Made by a program: the position numbers and the translations under genes
Shown here: piece by piece, positions 153-5,125 of the stretch
Position numbering within the stretch: position 1 is the stretch's first letter
Layout: each line of letters starts with the position of its first letter
Virus record (IMG/VR): IMGVR_UViG_2713896784_000014
DNA from: a virus
Taxonomy: Duplodnaviria > Heunggongvirae > Uroviricota > Caudoviricetes
Reading direction: 5' to 3' (one strand)
Length of the DNA: 5,125 nt
Notes under the pieces: generated by a model
What the model saw: only the letters and a program-made list of their open reading frames with translations
The model's database searches: none
What the model was told of the DNA's origin: nothing

Positions 153-431
153 TCATCTGATACCGAACTTTACCCTCGAACATCCGGAAGAAATCCGGCA
201 TGAATATTGTTGGTCAANNNNNNNNNNNNNNNNNNNNNNNNNNNNNNNNNNNNNNNNNNNNNNNNNNGTATTACGAGCCAGGGCTTCCGGATGGCTGTCG
301 TCGTACAGTTCCGGGAACGTCATCCCCAGCTCGAAATAAGTCCGGGCTATTTCAGCTGCAGGAACTTTCTCACCGTCCGGATAGGCCCAGGCATTGATCG
401 CCATGCGGATGTGCTCATGTTTGATTTTCAT
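153..431 (-). CDS. YdaT-like protein (so-called toxin YdaT / CII-like family of Rac-type prophages); reading frame passes through a 50-N assembly gap so true length is uncertain
   Basis: ORF track 153..431 (-). N-terminus MKIKHEHIRMAINAWAYPDGEKVPAAEIARTYFELGMTFPELYDDSHPEALARN; the MKIKHEHI start is characteristic of YdaT-family proteins as I recall them. Start ATG 431-429 overlaps the cro-like stop TGA 430-428 (ATGA coupling). SD-like AAGGGGG lies 4 nt upstream. Stop TGA 155-153 sits inside the SD of the next gene. Confidence 0.6.
   Translation of the reverse strand: MKIKHEHIRMAINAWAYPDGEKVPAAEIARTYFELGMTFPELYDDSHPEALARNXXXXXXXXXXXXXXXXXXDQQYSCRISSGCSRVKFGIR
218..267. other. Assembly gap: run of 50 N
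   Basis: Positions 218-267 are all n in the sequence; the gap length may be arbitrary. Confidence 0.95.
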
Positions 432-655
432 GAATCCCCCTTTCCTTCGCCCTGAGTGGTATCCTTCTTTTTGTAAAGTTCTGGGTTCAAAGATAATTTC
501 CCCTTGGAGTATGCAGCAGCTTCCGCAGCCCTCCCCTTCGGAACTATTTCACCAGGACGCTTACGCCACATGTAAATAGCTTCGCGGGTTATCCCATAAA
601 AATCGGCAACCCTCTGAACAGAACCAAAAAACTGGACAAGTTCATCAACTCGCAT
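428..655 (-). CDS. Cro-like small HTH DNA-binding protein (YdaS/Cro family), 75 aa
   Basis: ORF track 428..667 (-) begins at a TTG; the internal ATG at 655-653 is preceded by a perfect GGAGG (664-660) with a 4-nt spacer, so 655 is the likely start. Protein MRVDELVQFFGSVQRVADFYGITREAIYMWRKRPGEIVPKGRAAEAAAYSKGKL... has a GxxxxVAxxxGITxxAIYxW helix-turn-helix pattern typical of Cro/YdaS-like proteins. It is divergent from the CI-like repressor. Confidence 0.8.
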   Translation of the reverse strand: MRVDELVQFFGSVQRVADFYGITREAIYMWRKRPGEIVPKGRAAEAAAYSKGKLSLNPELYKKKDTTQGEGKGDS

Positions 656-752
656 TTTACCTCCCAAATCTAAGTATTTTTAGATTACAAGATAATTTTT
701 TTTAGGTCAATGCAATCTAAAATAATTTATATTCAATTTGCAGGAGAAAATG
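656..752. promoter_or_regulatory. Divergent immunity-region control region (OR-like) with candidate PR-like promoter on the minus strand and PRM-like promoter on the plus strand
   Basis: 97-bp AT-rich spacer between divergent cro-like and cI-like starts. Minus-strand candidate promoter: -35 TTGACC (plus coords 710-705), 17-nt spacer, -10 TAATCT (687-682). Plus-strand candidate -10 TAAAAT (718-723) or TATATT (728-733). Contains the AATCTAA-N6-TTAGATT palindrome and an extra AATCTAA half-site at 714-720. Confidence 0.6.
667..686. promoter_or_regulatory. Operator-like inverted repeat AATCTAAGTATTTTTAGATT (7-bp arms, 6-bp spacer)
   Basis: Perfect 7-bp inverted arms read directly from the sequence; it overlaps the proposed -10 and start region of the cro-directed promoter. 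A 15/17 match recurs at 1475-1491. Confidence 0.55.
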
Positions 753-1397
753 ATGGAAAGCCTTGGCTTCAGGCTTAAGAGACTTAGAAAAGATAAGGGG
801 CTGACCCAAGTAGAACTGGGTAAGCTTTCAGGCGTGACTGGGGTTACTATAGGGTACTGGGAGAAAGATCTAAACGAACCAGGTAGCAAAGCTCTAAGTA
901 AGTTAGCCCAGGCATTAGGAACTACTGAGTCCTATCTCCTATATGGAGTATCGTCTCCTGAATTATCTTTTGTACAAAGTACCTCAGGCACCAAGATCCC
1001 CTACCTTTCGTGGGGTGAGGCGATTTCTTTCCTAATCTTAAAAGGAGAGAAAACAATGGGAAATGTCGATAGAATCACCACATTCTTTGATGTCGAGGAA
1101 GGTGATTTTGCCGTTTCAATGCCTGATGACACAATGCATAACCCATCAGGATCACCGAGTATCCCAGTTGGTGCTACTGTGATCCTAAGGCCAGGAGAAA
1201 GTTATAAAAATGGCAGCATCGTCGCTGTAATAGTTCCGGATCCGCTTAAAAATGAACCATCTATGACTATAAAGAAATTAGTTATTGATGGGAAGCTTGT
1301 GTATTTAAGCCCTCTCAATCCACGCTATCAGTCATCCTTACTTACACCAGAGTGTAAAATTGTTGCCGTAGCAAAAGGTGTACAGTTCAACTTATAA
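753..1397 (+). CDS. CI-like phage repressor: N-terminal XRE-family HTH plus C-terminal LexA/S24-type autopeptidase domain (214 aa from ATG 753)
   Basis: ORF track 738..1397 starts at TTG; the ATG ATG pair at 750-755 follows AGGAG (742-746), so the start is 753 (6-nt spacer) or 750. HTH segment LTQVELGKLSGVTGVTIGYWEKD. C-terminal segment KKLVIDGKLVYLSPLNPRY closely resembles the lambda CI C-terminus ([20 protein letters not shown], recalled from memory). Candidate catalytic Ser in AVSM (codon 1116-1118) and Lys-Lys in TIKKL (1272-1277). Stop TAA 1395-1397. Confidence 0.9.
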   Translation: MESLGFRLKRLRKDKGLTQVELGKLSGVTGVTIGYWEKDLNEPGSKALSKLAQALGTTESYLLYGVSSPELSFVQSTSGTKIPYLSWGEAISFLILKGEKTMGNVDRITTFFDVEEGDFAVSMPDDTMHNPSGSPSIPVGATVILRPGESYKNGSIVAVIVPDPLKNEPSMTIKKLVIDGKLVYLSPLNPRYQSSLLTPECKIVAVAKGVQFNL

Positions 1398-1418
1398 CCC
1401 GCCACGTCCTTTACTTGA

Positions 1419-1443
1419 GGTCGGCAATGCCGACCTTTTTTTT
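1419..1443 (+). terminator. Rho-independent terminator downstream of the repressor gene
   Basis: Perfect stem GGTCGGC (1419-1425), loop AAT, GCCGACC (1429-1435), followed by eight T (1436-1443), 22 nt after the stop codon. Confidence 0.75.
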
Positions 1444-1446
1444 AAA

Positions 1447-1492
1447 TTAATCTAGATTTACCTTGACTGAAAAACTAAATACTTTTAGATTT
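1447..1492 (+). promoter_or_regulatory. OL/PL-like region: candidate rightward promoter (-35 TTGACT 1463-1468, 17-nt spacer, -10 TAGATT 1486-1491) embedded in operator-like repeats
   Basis: 10-bp perfect palindrome AATCTAGATT at 1449-1458. 17-mer CTAAATACTTTTAGATT at 1475-1491 matches the OR 17-mer CTAAGTATTTTTAGATT (670-686) at 15 of 17 positions and overlaps the proposed -10. Confidence 0.5.
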
Positions 1493-1671
1493 ATTACATA
1501 CCACCCTACCTCGCCCCACAGAACGTCGGGCAATACCTCGAGTTACCCGGCAGTGGTCAGGGGTTAAGTAGCCAGCCCGAGGCGTATGAACATGACGGCG
1601 GGAACACTTTGTATAACAGCGCAGCAGGTTTTTAGTTCCGCGACCCGGCGTTAAGGGTAAATGAGGTCAAC

Positions 1672-1824
1672 ATGGATATGCTCAATCTTGGCAACAATGA
1701 ATCTCTGGTGTGCGGAGTATTCCCCAACCACGACGGCACGTTTACCGCGATGACGTATACCAGAAGTAAAACGTTTAAAACCGAAGCTGGCGCGCATCGC
1801 TGGTTAGCAAGAAACGCTAACTGA
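1672..1824 (+). CDS. Small ORF (50 aa) downstream of the PL-like promoter, hypothetical; possibly a YdaF-like Rac-type small protein
   Basis: Manual translation: ATG 1672 ... TGA 1822-1824 gives MDMLNLGNNESLVCGVFPNHDGTFTAMTYTRSKTFKTEAGAHRWLARNAN. SD GAGG at 1663-1666 with a 5-nt spacer. Absent from the ORF track, presumably because it is below the length cutoff. The family resemblance is a vague recollection and is not verified. Confidence 0.4.
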   Translation: MDMLNLGNNESLVCGVFPNHDGTFTAMTYTRSKTFKTEAGAHRWLARNAN

Positions 1825-2100
1825 TTAGCGCCAGTAAAAACAGGTTTCCACAGGTTAATTTACCCTGAAAAGTCAGGGCATAACACGAAAGCGCACGGCG
1901 AAGTTAGTCTCTCTGTATAGGTCGTCGTTAAATTTAATTCGACCGTGCGCTTCTGGTTGTGGCAATCCGCGAAATGGCGCGGCGGTAAGTATGGCGGGGT
2001 TATTCCTTCCCCCGTTGAGGACACCGGGTTGTCAGGTTGACCATACGCTTAAGTGACNCCCCAGCCACAACAACCTCTGTTATCACTTTTCTGGTGATTC

Positions 2101-2126
2101 GGCGGAAATGGATATCCGCCCTTTTT
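2101..2126 (+). terminator. Candidate intrinsic terminator on the plus strand
   Basis: Stem GGCGGA (2101-2106) and TCCGCC (2115-2120) with an 8-nt loop, followed by CTTTTTAAA (T-run 2122-2126). The long loop and only 6-bp stem make this moderate-confidence. Confidence 0.5.
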
Positions 2127-2304
2127 AAAGTGAATTTTGTGATGCGGTGAATGCGGCTATGCGCACGCGGAACAGTTAAAGCAGTAAGGCGGTCTTTTAC
2201 TGGCGTAACGAGCATCAACTAACCCGACGTTAATTGTTAACTGGTTAACGTCACCTGGAGGCACCAGGCACTGCATCACAAAATTCATTGTTGAGGACGC
2301 GATA

Positions 2305-2493
2305 ATGGAAACGTTATTACCAAACGTTAATACGTCTGAAGGTTGTTTTGATATTGGTGTTCTGCTCAGTAATAAAGCGTTTACTGAGGATGCCATTAAT
2401 ATGCGGAAATATGAGCCTTATCTGCTCAATGATAATTCCATTCTTTCCCGAATTGCCCTTATTAAACTTGGTATTTTCGGAGAACGTCAATGA
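2305..2493 (+). CDS. Hypothetical small early-left protein (62 aa)
   Basis: ORF track 2305..2493 (+). SD GAGGA at 2293-2297 with a 7-nt spacer to ATG 2305. Stop TGA 2491-2493 overlaps the next start (ATGA). Protein METLLPNVNTSEGCFDIGVLLSNKAFTEDAINMRKYEPYLLNDNSILSRIALIKLGIFGERQ; no family recognised. Confidence 0.55.
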   Translation: METLLPNVNTSEGCFDIGVLLSNKAFTEDAINMRKYEPYLLNDNSILSRIALIKLGIFGERQ

Positions 2494-2678
2494 CTTCAGC
2501 ATTTGCACTGGTGATGACGGTTTTTCTTATAACGGGTGAATCACAGAATGTTATTACCGGAATTTATGCCAGTAAAGAATCCTGCCTCCAGGCAAGAGAC
2601 GAGCAAAAAATTTCTGGTGAATGCCTACCGGTAAAAAAAGTATCGCTGTACCTGAATAACGAAACACCGGCTGGATAA
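2490..2678 (+). CDS. Hypothetical small protein (62 aa) with an N-terminal hydrophobic segment (signal peptide or single transmembrane helix)
   Basis: ORF track 2490..2678 (+). ATG 2490-2492 overlaps the upstream stop by 4 bp (translational coupling). Protein MTSAFALVMTVFLITGESQNVITGIYASKESCLQARDEQKISGECLPVKKVSLYLNNETPAG: residues 4-15 are hydrophobic, and the C-terminal part has two Cys. Confidence 0.55.
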   Translation: MTSAFALVMTVFLITGESQNVITGIYASKESCLQARDEQKISGECLPVKKVSLYLNNETPAG

Positions 2679-2773: not shown

Positions 2774-5125
2774 ATGAGTAAAATCTTTATTTGCGCTGCT
2801 ATTCCTGACGAACAGGCCATAAAAGAAGATAGCGCTGTTGCGGTGGCCACTGCCATTGAAGCCGGTGATGAGCGTCGCGCACGCGCAAAATTTCACTGGC
2901 AATTTCTGGAGCAATTCCCGGCAGCTCAGGACTGCGCTTATAAATTTATTGTCTGCGAGGATAAACCCGGCATACCCCGCCCTGCCCTCGATTCCTGGGA
3001 TACCGAATATATGCAGGAAAACCGCTGGGATGAGGAGTCAGCTTCCTTTGTACCGGTCGAACCAGAATCCGATCCGATGAACGTCAATTTTGACAAGCTG
3101 TCCCCTGAAGTACAGAACGCAGTCCTGGTTAAATTCGACACATGCGAAAACATCACCGTTGATATGGTGATTAGCGCACAGGAATTACTACAGGAAGACA
3201 TGGCAACATTCGGCGGACATATCGTTGAAGCGTTGATGAAAATGCCAGAAGTTAACGCCATGTATCCTGAACTTAAACTGCATGCCATCGGGTGGGTTAA
3301 GCATAAATGTGAGCCTGGCGCTAAATGGCCTGAAATTCAGGCAGAGATGCGCATCTGGAAAAAACGTCGCGAAGGTGAACGCAAGGAAACCGGAAAATAC
3401 ACGTCTGTTGTTGATCTCGCCCGCGCCAGAGTCAACCAACAGAACCCTGAAAACGCTGCTGAAAAAACCGGGGCTGTCACTGTTGCCATTCGCCGCGAAT
3501 ACAAACAGACATGGAAAACACTCGACAATGAACTGGCCTGCGCCCTCTGGCCCGGTGATGTGGATGCAGGAAACATTGACGGTACCATCCATCGCTGGGC
3601 GACAAATGAGGTTATCGACAAGGATCGCGAAGACTGGAAGCGTATCTCAGCATCAATGCGCAAACAGCCCGAAGCACTTGGCTATGACCGTCAGACTATT
3701 TTTGGCCTTGTTCGCGAACGTCCGATCGATATTCACAAAGATCCCGTTGCACTGAACAAATATATCAGTGAATACCTGACGACAAAGGGCGTGTTTGAAC
3801 ATGAAGAAACAGACCAGAGCTCTACTGATGCTCTCCAGCCGTCAGCAGCACAAACTGCTCCAGTGGAGACGGCAGAATCCGATACTCAAAAAAATGAAAT
3901 CCTGGTGGAAGCTGAACCATCTGTAGAGCGTGAAGGACCATTTTATTTCGTCTTTACCGATAAGGGCGGGGAAAAATACGGCAGGGCAAACAAACTTTCT
4001 GGTCTGGACAAGGCGCTGGCTGCCGGCGGTACCGAAATCTCAAAAGAAGAATATTTTGCCCGAAAAAATGGCACATACACGGGCTTACCGCAAAATGTGG
4101 ATACCGCTGAAGATTCCGAACAATCAGAGCCGGTAAAAGTTACCGCTGACGAAGTAAACAAAATTATGCAGGCAGCCAATATCAGCCAGCCTGACGCCGA
4201 TAAATTGCTTGCTGCATCACGTGGTGAATTTGTTGAAGGGATTAGCGACCCGAATGATCCGAAATGGGTGAAAGGGATCCAGAGTCGCGACGCTGAGGAC
4301 CAGAATCAGCCCAACGTGAAACAAAATGAGCCAGAAGCGGAACAAAACAGCCCGGATACGCAACAAAACGGGCCAGAAGAACAACAACCAGAACCAGCAG
4401 TGCAACAGGAACTGGAAAAAGTTTGCACCGCATGCGGTCAGACCGGTGGCGGCAACTGTCCTGACTGTGGTGCGGTGATGGGGAACGCAACCTACCTGGA
4501 AACATTCGATGAAGAGAATCAGGCTGAAGCTCAGAAAAATGATCCGGAGGAAATGGAAGGCACTGAACATCTGCACAAGGAGAACACTGGCAGCGATCAG
4601 TATCACGCCAGCGATAATAAAACTGGCGAAACAGCAAATCCCTTAATTAAAGTGAACGGTCATCATGAAATCTCATCCACCAGCAGGTTGTGGCACCATC
4701 TGATGATTGACCTTGAAACAATGGGAAAAAATCCTGATGCGCCAATAAACTCTATAGCCGGTAAGTTTTTTGATCCGGCAACCGGAGAGATGGGGCCAGA
4801 ATTCAGCAAAACTATCGATCTGGAAACCGCAGGTGGGGTCATCGATCGGGACACCATTAAGTGGTGGCTGAAACAGTCACGCGAAGCACAATCCTCCATT
4901 CTGACCGATGAAATCACGTTGGATGATGCACTGCTGCAATTCCGGGAATTTATCGACGAAAACTCCGGTGAATTTTTTGTTCAGGTCTGGGGTAACGGTG
5001 CAACTTTCGACAACGTGATTTTACGCCGTTCATATGAACGGCAGGGGATCCCCTGCCCGTGGCGTTACACCAATGATCGCGATGTAAGAACGATGGTTGC
5101 TCTGGGACTGGTGATGGATTTCGAC
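2774..5125 (+). CDS. recE: RecE-like recombination exonuclease (exodeoxyribonuclease VIII-like), 784 codons with the 3' end beyond the window; C-terminal part carries DEDD/DnaQ-like 3'-5' exonuclease motifs
   Basis: Manual codon-by-codon reading from ATG 2774 (in-frame stop TAA at 2765-2767 just upstream) finds no stop codon through 5125. Missing from the ORF track, presumably because it has no stop in the window. Contains DKLLAASRGEFVEGISDPNDPKWVKGIQ, which I recall as RecE-like. C-terminal motifs MIDLETMG (Exo I, about 4703-4726) and WGNGATFDN (Exo II, about 4991-5014). Sits where exo/bet-type recombination genes lie in lambdoid early-left operons. The gene symbol is by family resemblance only. 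Confidence 0.85.
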   Translation, partial: MSKIFICAAIPDEQAIKEDSAVAVATAIEAGDERRARAKFHWQFLEQFPAAQDCAYKFIVCEDKPGIPRPALDSWDTEYMQENRWDEESASFVPVEPESDPMNVNFDKLSPEVQNAVLVKFDTCENITVDMVISAQELLQEDMATFGGHIVEALMKMPEVNAMYPELKLHAIGWVKHKCEPGAKWPEIQAEMRIWKKRREGERKETGKYTSVVDLARARVNQQNPENAAEKTGAVTVAIRREYKQTWKTLDNELACALWPGDVDAGNIDGTIHRWATNEVIDKDREDWKRISASMRKQPEALGYDRQTIFGLVRERPIDIHKDPVALNKYISEYLTTKGVFEHEETDQSSTDALQPSAAQTAPVETAESDTQKNEILVEAEPSVEREGPFYFVFTDKGGEKYGRANKLSGLDKALAAGGTEISKEEYFARKNGTYTGLPQNVDTAEDSEQSEPVKVTADEVNKIMQAANISQPDADKLLAASRGEFVEGISDPNDPKWVKGIQSRDAEDQNQPNVKQNEPEAEQNSPDTQQNGPEEQQPEPAVQQELEKVCTACGQTGGGNCPDCGAVMGNATYLETFDEENQAEAQKNDPEEMEGTEHLHKENTGSDQYHASDNKTGETANPLIKVNGHHEISSTSRLWHHLMIDLETMGKNPDAPINSIAGKFFDPATGEMGPEFSKTIDLETAGGVIDRDTIKWWLKQSREAQSSILTDEITLDDALLQFREFIDENSGEFFVQVWGNGATFDNVILRRSYERQGIPCPWRYTNDRDVRTMVALGLVMDFD

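Follow-up and report, generated by a model that had tools for sequence, protein, structure and literature searches.

In the dicBF operon of the Qin prophage of Escherichia coli K-12, the small RNA (sRNA) DicF is produced as a molecule of 53 nucleotides (nt) by Rho-independent termination and an RNase E cut at its 5' end, and as a 72-nt form by RNase III cutting of read-through RNA (PMC5069750; PMC9438474), the cleavage of the full-length transcript yielding the 3' end of the latter (PMC5069750). A third form of 190 nt, whose 5' end is generated by RNase III at +813/814, accumulates upon inactivation of RNase E, and no internal promoter has been found in the operon (bioRxiv 10.1101/2023.04.14.536235). 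Both terminated and read-through products are documented in K-12 (PMC5069750, PMC9438474; bioRxiv 10.1101/2023.04.14.536235). In phage HK022, the put RNAs of about 70 nt form two stem-loops and bind the zinc-binding domain of the beta' subunit of RNA polymerase (PMC9378689). Here, these systems and the N/nutL system of phage lambda are compared with the early-left operon contained in a stretch of 5,125 nt of Caudoviricetes DNA (IMG/VR record IMGVR_UViG_2713896784_000014), the whole of which is called the window.

In an initial annotation made from the sequence of the window, it was noticed that no open reading frame (ORF) resembling the antiterminator gene N lies between the PL-like promoter and position 2305, and it was proposed that antitermination is RNA-based as in HK022, that it is absent or replaced by another mechanism of read-through, or that the prophage is cryptic. 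Our analysis makes it likely that positions 1463-2304 comprise the promoter, the first gene and the long untranslated region of an early-left operon of the Qin dicBF type, with a terminator that makes an sRNA and no need for N. Of the explanations offered initially, absence of antitermination, or read-through by another mechanism, is the best supported, with dicB, a ydfD-like gene, an exonuclease gene and int all lying behind a DicF-type terminator.

The early-left operon and the short DicF variant

A lambdoid prophage of many E. coli O157:H7 genomes matches the window at 99.9% identity, and the window contains the immunity region of this prophage. The elements of the operon up to the ydfD-like gene are the following (aa, amino acids; R1, the covariance model described in the next section):

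1463-1491, plus strand: PL-like sigma-70 promoter TTGACT-17-TAGATT (promoter scan), counterpart of dicBp, just past the cI-like gene and its terminator
1492-1671, plus strand: 5' leader, about 180 nt long, starting with a C-rich, G-poor stretch and without a significant fold
1672-1824, plus strand: ydfA-like small ORF of 50 aa, first gene of the operon (Pfam PF07151, DUF1391, E = 1.3e-28; RefSeq: DUF1391 family protein)
1889-1953, plus strand: long hairpin AAGCGCACGGCGAA...UUCGACCGUGCGCUU (fold of 1855-1960, -34.4 kcal/mol, z = -3.9), homologous in K-12
1952-2081, plus strand: structured RNA domain of about 125 nt, formed by a closing stem and three internal helices, with a candidate pseudoknot (R1, 144.5 bits)
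2088-2126, plus strand: shortened DicF-derived sRNA with single-stranded 5' part UUUCUGGUGAUUC, hairpin 2101-2120 and U-run 2121-2126 (alignment, terminator scan)
2122-2297, plus strand: highly structured domain closed by a long-range helix, about 2122-2149 with about 2270-2297 (fold of 2121-2320, -70.8 kcal/mol, z = -5.5)
2305-2493, plus strand: dicB, cell-division inhibitor of 62 aa (Pfam DicB, E = 1.3e-35, full length; RefSeq annotation)
2490-2678, plus strand: ydfD-like gene, 62 aa (Pfam PF07358, DUF1482, E = 2.6e-16), in the same slot as K-12 ydfD

In K-12 Qin, the gene order is ydfA-ydfB-ydfC-dicF-dicB-ydfD. In the window, homologues of ydfA, dicB and ydfD are present and the promoter bears an operator motif; ydfB and ydfC are absent, and ydfB is missing in one strain too (PMC5069750). 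The annotated order in O157:H7 prophages is DUF1391 - dicB - DUF1482 - exonuclease. When aligned with K-12, the window showed a close match from about 1860, in the ydfC-dicF spacer, to the start of dicB, and the non-coding region was present in 4,746 of 5,426 complete E. coli genomes. Judged by sequence comparison, the early-left operon is a Qin-type dicBF operon made up of the ydfA-like gene, the long untranslated region, dicB, the ydfD-like gene and the exonuclease gene. The small ORFs seen downstream in the initial annotation would depend on read-through, as had been supposed, but their identity as dicB and a homologue of ydfD had been missed.

An operator-like motif, CTAANTANTTTTAGAT, occurs three times in the window, at 670 and 715 (between cro and cI) and at 1475, whereas 0.05 copies were expected and none of 200 shuffled sequences contained three. 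Since one of these copies (1475-1490) overlaps the PL-like promoter, the latter is a repressor-controlled early promoter, and its initial assignment was well founded on the promoter scan as well as on the repeated motif.

The hairpin at 2101-2120 consists of a stem of 6 base pairs (bp), GGCGGA/UCCGCC, and an 8-nt loop, is followed by CUUUUU and folds with a free energy of -10.7 kcal/mol (z = -2.4). Because terminator-like sites were not enriched across the window (nine found versus 6.0 ± 2.8 expected), the weight of this hairpin lies in its homology: in the alignment, 2101-2126 is in register with the Rho-independent terminator of K-12 DicF. It was the only site that the terminator scan returned on the plus strand downstream of PL. 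With its stem and U-run, its alignment with the K-12 terminator and the hairpins and U-runs at the same position in other copies of the region, the hairpin proposed initially as a terminator proved to be real. As it is homologous to a characterised terminator, expression of dicB and the later genes would depend on read-through.

Although a canonical DicF was expected from synteny, this candidate was rejected. The Rfam model of DicF (RF00039; gathering score 48 bits) gave 76.7 bits with K-12, used as a positive control, and no match at E <= 10 in window positions 1840-2310 (471 nt), where the alignment shows a variant shorter by 19 nt. This variant keeps the first 10 nt, UUUCUGGUGA, and the base of the hairpin, and what remains of the upper stem-loop is changed. 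Its location is that of DicF, in the untranslated region upstream of dicB, in the K-12 register and ending at an intrinsic terminator. From the sequence and the role described for the missing upper stem-loop (PMC5069750), the short copy probably keeps the targets of the 5' seed and loses the ftsZ pairing of K-12 DicF. When window positions 2030-2170 were compared with the 5,426 complete genomes, taking the best match per record, the short variant was found in 648 at 95% identity or more and in 781 at 90% or more, while canonical loci matched at about 80% identity over a span of 160 nt. For strain EDL933, four DicF copies have been tabulated, which are Rfam-type matches of 52-56 nt (PMC5331693); this list would not include the locus of the short variant.

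Beyond the U-run, the predicted long-range helix extends to the Shine-Dalgarno region of dicB. In it, AGUGAAUUUUGUGAUG (2131-2146) pairs with CAUCACAAAAUUCAUU (2274-2289) as a perfect helix of 16 bp, which begins 5 nt past the DicF U-run and ends about 15 nt short of the dicB start. The cut by RNase III that yields the 72-nt form in K-12 probably falls within this helix; the folding model suggests that the helix may also occlude dicB translation. An analogous long-range helix lies downstream of the terminator in phages Ayreon and F1055 and in a divergent genomic copy (L123). The Rfam model of STnc100 (RF02076; gathering score 47 bits) gave 29.3-29.5 bits in the window and 34.1 bits in K-12, both below the gathering score; going by the alignment, the downstream domain appears to be related to this family even so. 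In Shigella Stx phages, matches to the region covered the STnc100-like part only. STnc100/PasD RNAs are typical of Stx-phage-like prophages (bioRxiv 10.64898/2026.05.13.724894). In the EDL933 lysogen, eleven STnc100 copies are well expressed, with several hundred to several thousand reads each, and the four Rfam DicF copies are nearly silent, with 0-118 reads (PMC5331693, Table 1). From these read numbers, some STnc100-type RNAs seem to have a source of transcription other than the repressed early promoters.

The structured domain upstream of DicF

In a BLAST comparison with a phage collection, window positions from about 1956 to 2079 recurred detached from the remainder of the region in Stx2c phages, Ayreon, 2H10, Salmonella F1055 and P1. 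The covariance model R1 was built here, and 100 copies, 55 of them distinct, were collected from viral contigs and reference loci. In the alignment of the 55 distinct copies, which was fitted to the model and consists of closely related sequences, 96.6% of cells form standard pairs, both sides have changed in 10 of 34 pairs (4.1 ± 1.4 in shuffles, a value reached by 1 of 500) and 35 cells show double changes (5.7 ± 2.1 in shuffles, reached by none of 500). Six slid registers were all far worse than that of R1. The candidate pseudoknot, formed by GUAUG in the junction and CAUAC in the loop of helix P4, is paired in 99.6% of cases, and one of its pairs covaries, U-A being replaced by C-G in the P1 group. 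The window carries a single N at 2058, within P4, where the genome of strain TR01 reads A. At about 2025-2040 (alignment columns 85-98), a tandem of GGUUG, GGGUUGUCAGGUUGAC, allows two mutually exclusive pairings with the 3' strand UGACAACCC, which could be a conformational switch or an ambiguity of prediction. The domain matched no Rfam family, the sub-threshold STnc100 hit being the only one over 1840-2310 at E <= 10. A tRNA- or tmRNA-like nature was discarded, as ARAGORN found nothing, and HK022 contains no copy of the domain.

At the K-12 locus (L002), R1 matches positions 3248-3376. Counting back 190 nt from the 3' end of DicF at L002 3435 places the start of the 190-nt form at 3246, by the 3' foot of the long hairpin, with an accuracy of about ±5 nt; in an independent estimate based on the promoter, +813/814 falls at about 3250. 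Since the 5' end of the 190-nt form thus maps to the start of R1, the structured domain is, according to these coordinates, the 5' part of the published long DicF. The window shows the same arrangement, with the R1 match preceded by the long hairpin and followed by the terminator. By analogy, the hairpin at 1889-1953 is a probable RNase III substrate, and a cut on its 3' side would make the 5' end of long DicF. The structure and conservation of this 137-nt 5' part are not discussed in the DicF literature covered; Faubladier & Bouche 1994, Melson & Kendall 2019 and the P1 genome paper may already describe it.

The domain does not recur in isolation. In every copy examined, namely those of the window, K-12 and 16 others (P1, Ayreon, F1055, L123 and 12 viral contigs), a terminator composed of a hairpin and a U-run follows at a distance of 15-35 nt. 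The base of the terminator hairpin (UUUGGCGG...CCGCCCUUUUU) is common to the copies except that of P1, and its interior varies by lineage. So does the single-stranded stretch between domain and terminator, which reads UUUCUGGUGA, ACUGCUUU, UUAUUGCUGUGUGAAGUCUU or CCAGUUU in a comparison of window positions 2086-2100 with L005 4118-4128, L007 3132-3151, L003 2606-2618 and the folded viral contigs. These sequences give the impression of a single scaffold carrying alternative sRNA seeds.

In six lambdoid contexts (the O157 prophage, Qin, Tritos, Ayreon, an Stx2c phage and F1055), the segment transcribed first after the repressor gene is the one that carries the cassette; the stretches examined showed no N-like ORF. 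Two ORFs beside the cassette were considered as N-like and rejected: that of 126 aa in Ayreon is not arginine-rich and has no Pfam match, and that of 61 aa in F1055 encodes a ClpX-type zinc finger. No DUF1391 gene was annotated or detected in the stretches examined of Ayreon, the Stx2c phage, F1055 and P1. In P1, R1 matched with 95.7 bits in a region annotated as 'dicF-like region'; there, the cassette lies about 50-250 nt after the C1-controlled Pban promoters and ahead of tRNA genes, tciABC and ban. Among the best 40 of 81 phage records matching the element termed B, none was a record of lambda, P22, 933W or HK97. A pattern scan of genome contigs (19 specified bases and a variable gap of 31 positions) returned 120 loci, of which 5 were real and the rest were mostly chance matches in unrelated phyla. 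Sampling of the cassette covers mainly Escherichia, Salmonella and P1-like phages and is poor beyond these.

Search for antitermination by N or put

All plus-strand ORFs of at least 20 aa were enumerated between 1480 and 2340. Seven were found, and the absence of an N-like ORF before 2305 was confirmed: only the 50-aa ORF at 1672-1824 has family support, and its DUF1391 product is not arginine-rich. The other six measure 21-37 aa; the two of them that were scanned against Pfam (1945-2040 and 2037-2150) had no match. None of the seven carries an arginine-rich motif (ARM) of the N type. The highest count belongs to a 23-aa ORF at 2151-2222, in which a stretch of 15 residues contains 4 Arg; the best stretch of this length in lambda N contains 5 Arg, or 7 Arg plus Lys. 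The boxA sequence (YGCTCTTTA, at most one mismatch) was not found on the plus strand, and the single match on the minus strand compares with 2.1 expected by chance. Thus, of the two components of lambda N-type antitermination, neither a gene for an ARM protein nor a nut site was detected, and no remnant of an N pseudogene was seen in 1492-2304.

The flanking prophage was likewise searched for N- and Q-like genes. In the 41-kb prophage locus, a Q antiterminator is annotated and N is not. A tblastn search of this locus with lambda N and HK022 Nun gave nothing below E = 1, and an ARM scan of all its 211 ORFs returned only out-of-frame artefacts and known genes (Q, RusA).

A small, stable hairpin, CCCUGA-AAAG-UCAGGG, is located at 1863-1878. 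It has CCCUGAAAA in common with lambda boxB, which it resembles only loosely. The stem of the hairpin is not kept in K-12, which reads CCCUGAAAAGUCAGAC at this position, and there is no boxA nearby. The hairpin may be what is left of a nut site, or be recognised by the N or Nun protein of another phage.

Other lambdoid phages have the leader at 1492-1671 with 86-88% identity; that of K-12 Qin is about 70 nt long and lacks an insert of about 110 nt present in the window. The first 25 nt or so (1497-1520, CAUACCACCCUACCUCGCCCCACA) are very C-rich with a single G, a composition as expected of a Rho-utilisation site. In order to compare the leader with put, putR and putL were located in the HK022 genome with their numbering matched to the cryo-electron microscopy paper (PMC9378689). 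Leader positions 1518-1562 give a local alignment to putR that scores 31; shuffled sequences average 17.3 ± 2.9, and 2 in 1000 score as high. No similarity to putL was found. A put covariance model (R2) was made from eight RNAs (HK022 putL and putR, HK639, CobraSix, S9-5 putL and putR, and phiEt88 putL and putR), whose alignment shows the expected covariation, the first put hairpin included. With filters off, the model detected HK022 putL and putR with 93.8 and 78.5 bits, respectively, whereas no match in the leader or the 41-kb prophage rose above noise, the best having E >= 5 and lying outside the leader. The put consensus, with its CGAACGGC hairpin, GUCGG and a stem II with a CAAUG bulge, does not occur in the window, and the leader has neither the first put hairpin nor the distal part of stem II. 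Its folding was no better than that of shuffled sequences (z = +0.34 and +1.72). The leader was therefore rejected as a member of the put family, and the RNA-based antitermination of the HK022 type put forward in the initial annotation received no support, the comparison with put structures recommended there having given no match in sequence or structure.

The remaining features of the window are:

428-667, minus strand: P22-Cro-like gene
738-1397, plus strand: cI/LexA-type repressor gene (HTH_3 and Peptidase_S24 domains, Pfam)
1417-1437, plus strand: terminator of the repressor gene (terminator scan)
2774-5125, plus strand: large exonuclease gene, exceeding the window end (Pfam Rv2179c-like 3'-5' exoribonuclease domain, residues 641-778, E = 1.8e-48)

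The last gene is annotated as 'exonuclease' in the prophage, where it is followed by a DUF4224 gene and the integrase gene. Its ORF comprises at least 784 aa and has a recognisable domain at the C-terminal end only; no Pfam match covers the first 640 residues or so, in which acidic and Gln/Asn/Pro-rich stretches of low complexity occur. A masked run of 50 N (218-267) falls inside the minus-strand ORF 153-431, at the position of a YdaT-family toxin gene in TR01. In that strain, the prophage site is bordered by a tRNA-Ser gene beside mtfA on one side and by phage morphogenesis genes on the other. The O157 prophage (locus L001) further encodes three tRNA genes, hokD and a PerC-family regulator. 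Its large-terminase gene is frameshifted and IS1203 has inserted near the lysis genes (L001 375-2304 and 6682-7895), so that the prophage is probably defective.

Mechanism, alternatives and comparison with known systems

The analysis established the homology of the locus, identified its genes, found neither N nor put, and showed that the structured domain is conserved and covaries; the processing steps and partial termination that follow are carried over from K-12 experiments at the homologous locus. Upon inactivation of the repressor, the promoter at 1463-1491 would fire, and the ydfA-like ORF would be transcribed and translated, followed by a non-coding RNA of several domains. RNase III would cut the hairpin at 1889-1953. 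Most polymerases would stop at 2101-2126, leaving an RNA of about 175 nt with domain, seed and terminator, the presumed counterpart of the 190-nt long DicF, from which RNase E, cutting the AU-rich linker near 2087/2088, would release a DicF-like sRNA of about 39 nt. A minority of polymerases would pass the single, moderately strong terminator into dicB, the ydfD-like gene, the exonuclease gene and int, and the read-through RNA would fold into the helix at 2122-2297, partly covering the ribosome-binding site of dicB and offering a likely target for RNase III. The main job of the terminator hairpin would accordingly be to form the 3' end of the sRNA and to attenuate the toxic genes downstream, instead of being an obstacle that requires an N-like factor.

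Several observations weigh against this scheme. The hairpin of the short variant, with its 6-bp stem and 8-nt loop, differs from that of K-12, and it is from K-12 that all processing and termination steps are transferred. In K-12 itself, no transcript longer than ydfABC-dicF was detected (bioRxiv 10.1101/2023.04.14.536235); induction of the K-12 operon from a foreign promoter caused toxicity beyond that of dicF alone (PMC5069750). When run on the 100-copy alignment, RNAalifold reproduced three helices of the domain and shifted the register of the fourth, a shift due to the double occurrence of GGUUG; the single covarying pair in this helix favours the register of R1. Finally, the 5' domain is conserved more than the mature sRNA, which would be odd for a mere precursor and suggests, from the sequence comparison, a function outside this scheme.

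Such a function is the core of an alternative in which the domain at 1952-2081 is an autonomous cis-acting RNA that tunes the adjacent terminator with host machinery, as a put analogue or as a riboswitch-like or factor-binding attenuator, and replaces N by setting the ratio of sRNA to read-through. The domain always lies 15-35 nt upstream of an intrinsic terminator and early in a repressor-controlled operon, in the six lambdoid contexts as well as at P1 Pban, its greater conservation is accompanied by covariation, and none of the best 40 of 81 records matching element B was that of an N-bearing model phage. However, the domain has no similarity to put and no copy in HK022, and a conserved antiterminator pairing is missing: a near-complement of the terminator arm UUUGGCGG exists in the P2 arm, CCGCGAAA, but P1 has changed both without compensation, and this riboswitch-style pairing was discarded. 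The linker varies in length and sequence, as befits an sRNA seed rather than an expression platform. Moreover, in K-12 the domain accumulates within a stable processed RNA, for which a role as precursor or stabiliser is simpler. We regard tuning by the domain as unlikely. It is highly improbable that a protein antiterminator, be it the DUF1391/YdfA-like product or another small prophage protein, acts on the leader with the hairpin at 1863-1878 as a nut-like site. The DUF1391 gene is the first after PL, like N in lambda, and the hairpin is stable and shares CCCUGAAAA with lambda boxB, but the protein is not arginine-rich, boxA is missing, the stem is lost in K-12, and the cassette is present in stretches of Ayreon, the Stx2c phage, F1055 and P1 in which no DUF1391 gene was annotated or detected.

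That the region is merely part of a decayed prophage that lost N, without organised function, is scarcely tenable. The prophage was rightly suspected to be cryptic in the initial annotation insofar as it carries the frameshifted terminase gene and IS1203, and Qin of K-12 is cryptic too; decay does not explain the missing N, though, since Tritos, Ayreon, Salmonella F1055 and Stx2c phages, all deposited as complete genomes, share the layout without an N-like ORF in the stretches examined. The non-coding region is also under constraint, as seen in its covariation, it is widespread among E. coli genomes, and the 5' end of DicF, dicB and the ydfD-like gene are intact. Least probable of all is a divergent HK022 put member in the leader (1492-1671) that makes RNA polymerase resistant to termination: its position is right for putL and few shuffles equal the alignment of 1518-1562 with putR, but the put model, the missing hairpin and distal stem II, the lack of similarity to putL and the unstructured leader all speak against it.

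With the locus read as a dicBF-type operon whose terminator makes an sRNA, the missing N is no puzzle, as the operon belongs to a known class of lambdoid early-left operons with RNA elements in the slot of N. New in this class, relative to the literature covered, is the short DicF variant, which occurs in O157:H7 and in several hundred further complete E. coli genomes and is missed by Rfam-based annotation; tallies of 'four dicF copies' in enterohaemorrhagic E. coli, and deletion strains built on them, may hence be incomplete. New as well are the 5' domain of long DicF as a separately conserved structured RNA with covariation, common to P1 and Salmonella phages, and the architecture of the cassette (domain, variable single strand, terminator), which looks like a portable maker of different sRNAs and possibly sets read-through into dicB. 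An attenuator ahead of a cell-division inhibitor is useful in itself. If the alternative of a tuning domain were true, N-less lambdoid phages and the ban operon of P1 would gain a gate on early read-through that is independent of proteins and unrelated to put, while emitting an sRNA specific to each lineage.

As in lambda N/nutL, the slot concerned in the window is the segment transcribed first after PL, but there is no ARM protein, boxA or conserved boxB, and the terminator precedes the first regulated gene instead of following it as in lambda. In the RNase III-sensitive leader of lambda N, a large helix of the RNase III type lies ahead of the ribosome-binding site of the first downstream gene, and the window likewise has a large helix of this type before such a site. 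Like put of HK022, the domain is a cis-encoded structured RNA early in the early operon of an N-less lambdoid phage; unlike put, which it matches neither in sequence nor in structure, it measures about 125 nt, has four helices and would be the stable part of a processed sRNA precursor. Both the window (2133-2282) and K-12 align to the STnc100/PasD model (RF02076), but the match of the window is sub-threshold and belongs here to the 5' untranslated region of dicB, not to a demonstrated free-standing sRNA. With the 'dicF-like region' in the ban operon leader of P1, the window shares a structured domain followed by an intrinsic terminator behind repressor-controlled promoters, whereas terminator and linker of P1 are unrelated to the DicF seed and the genes downstream are tRNAs, tciABC and ban rather than dicB.

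DicF itself (RF00039) has in common with the copy in the window the slot upstream of dicB, the first 10 nt UUUCUGGUGA, the terminator base with its U-run, the upstream domain and the downstream helix, although the window copy fails the Rfam model, is 19 nt shorter and has a changed upper stem-loop. From the dicBF operon of Qin, the window differs in the absence of ydfB and ydfC, in its leader of about 180 nt against about 70 nt, in its LexA/cI-type repressor with an S24 peptidase domain in place of DicA, and in an intact large exonuclease and integrase where K-12 has pseudogenes. Both operons share a repressor-controlled promoter, no N gene, ydfA, a long untranslated region with dicF and its terminator, and then dicB and ydfD.

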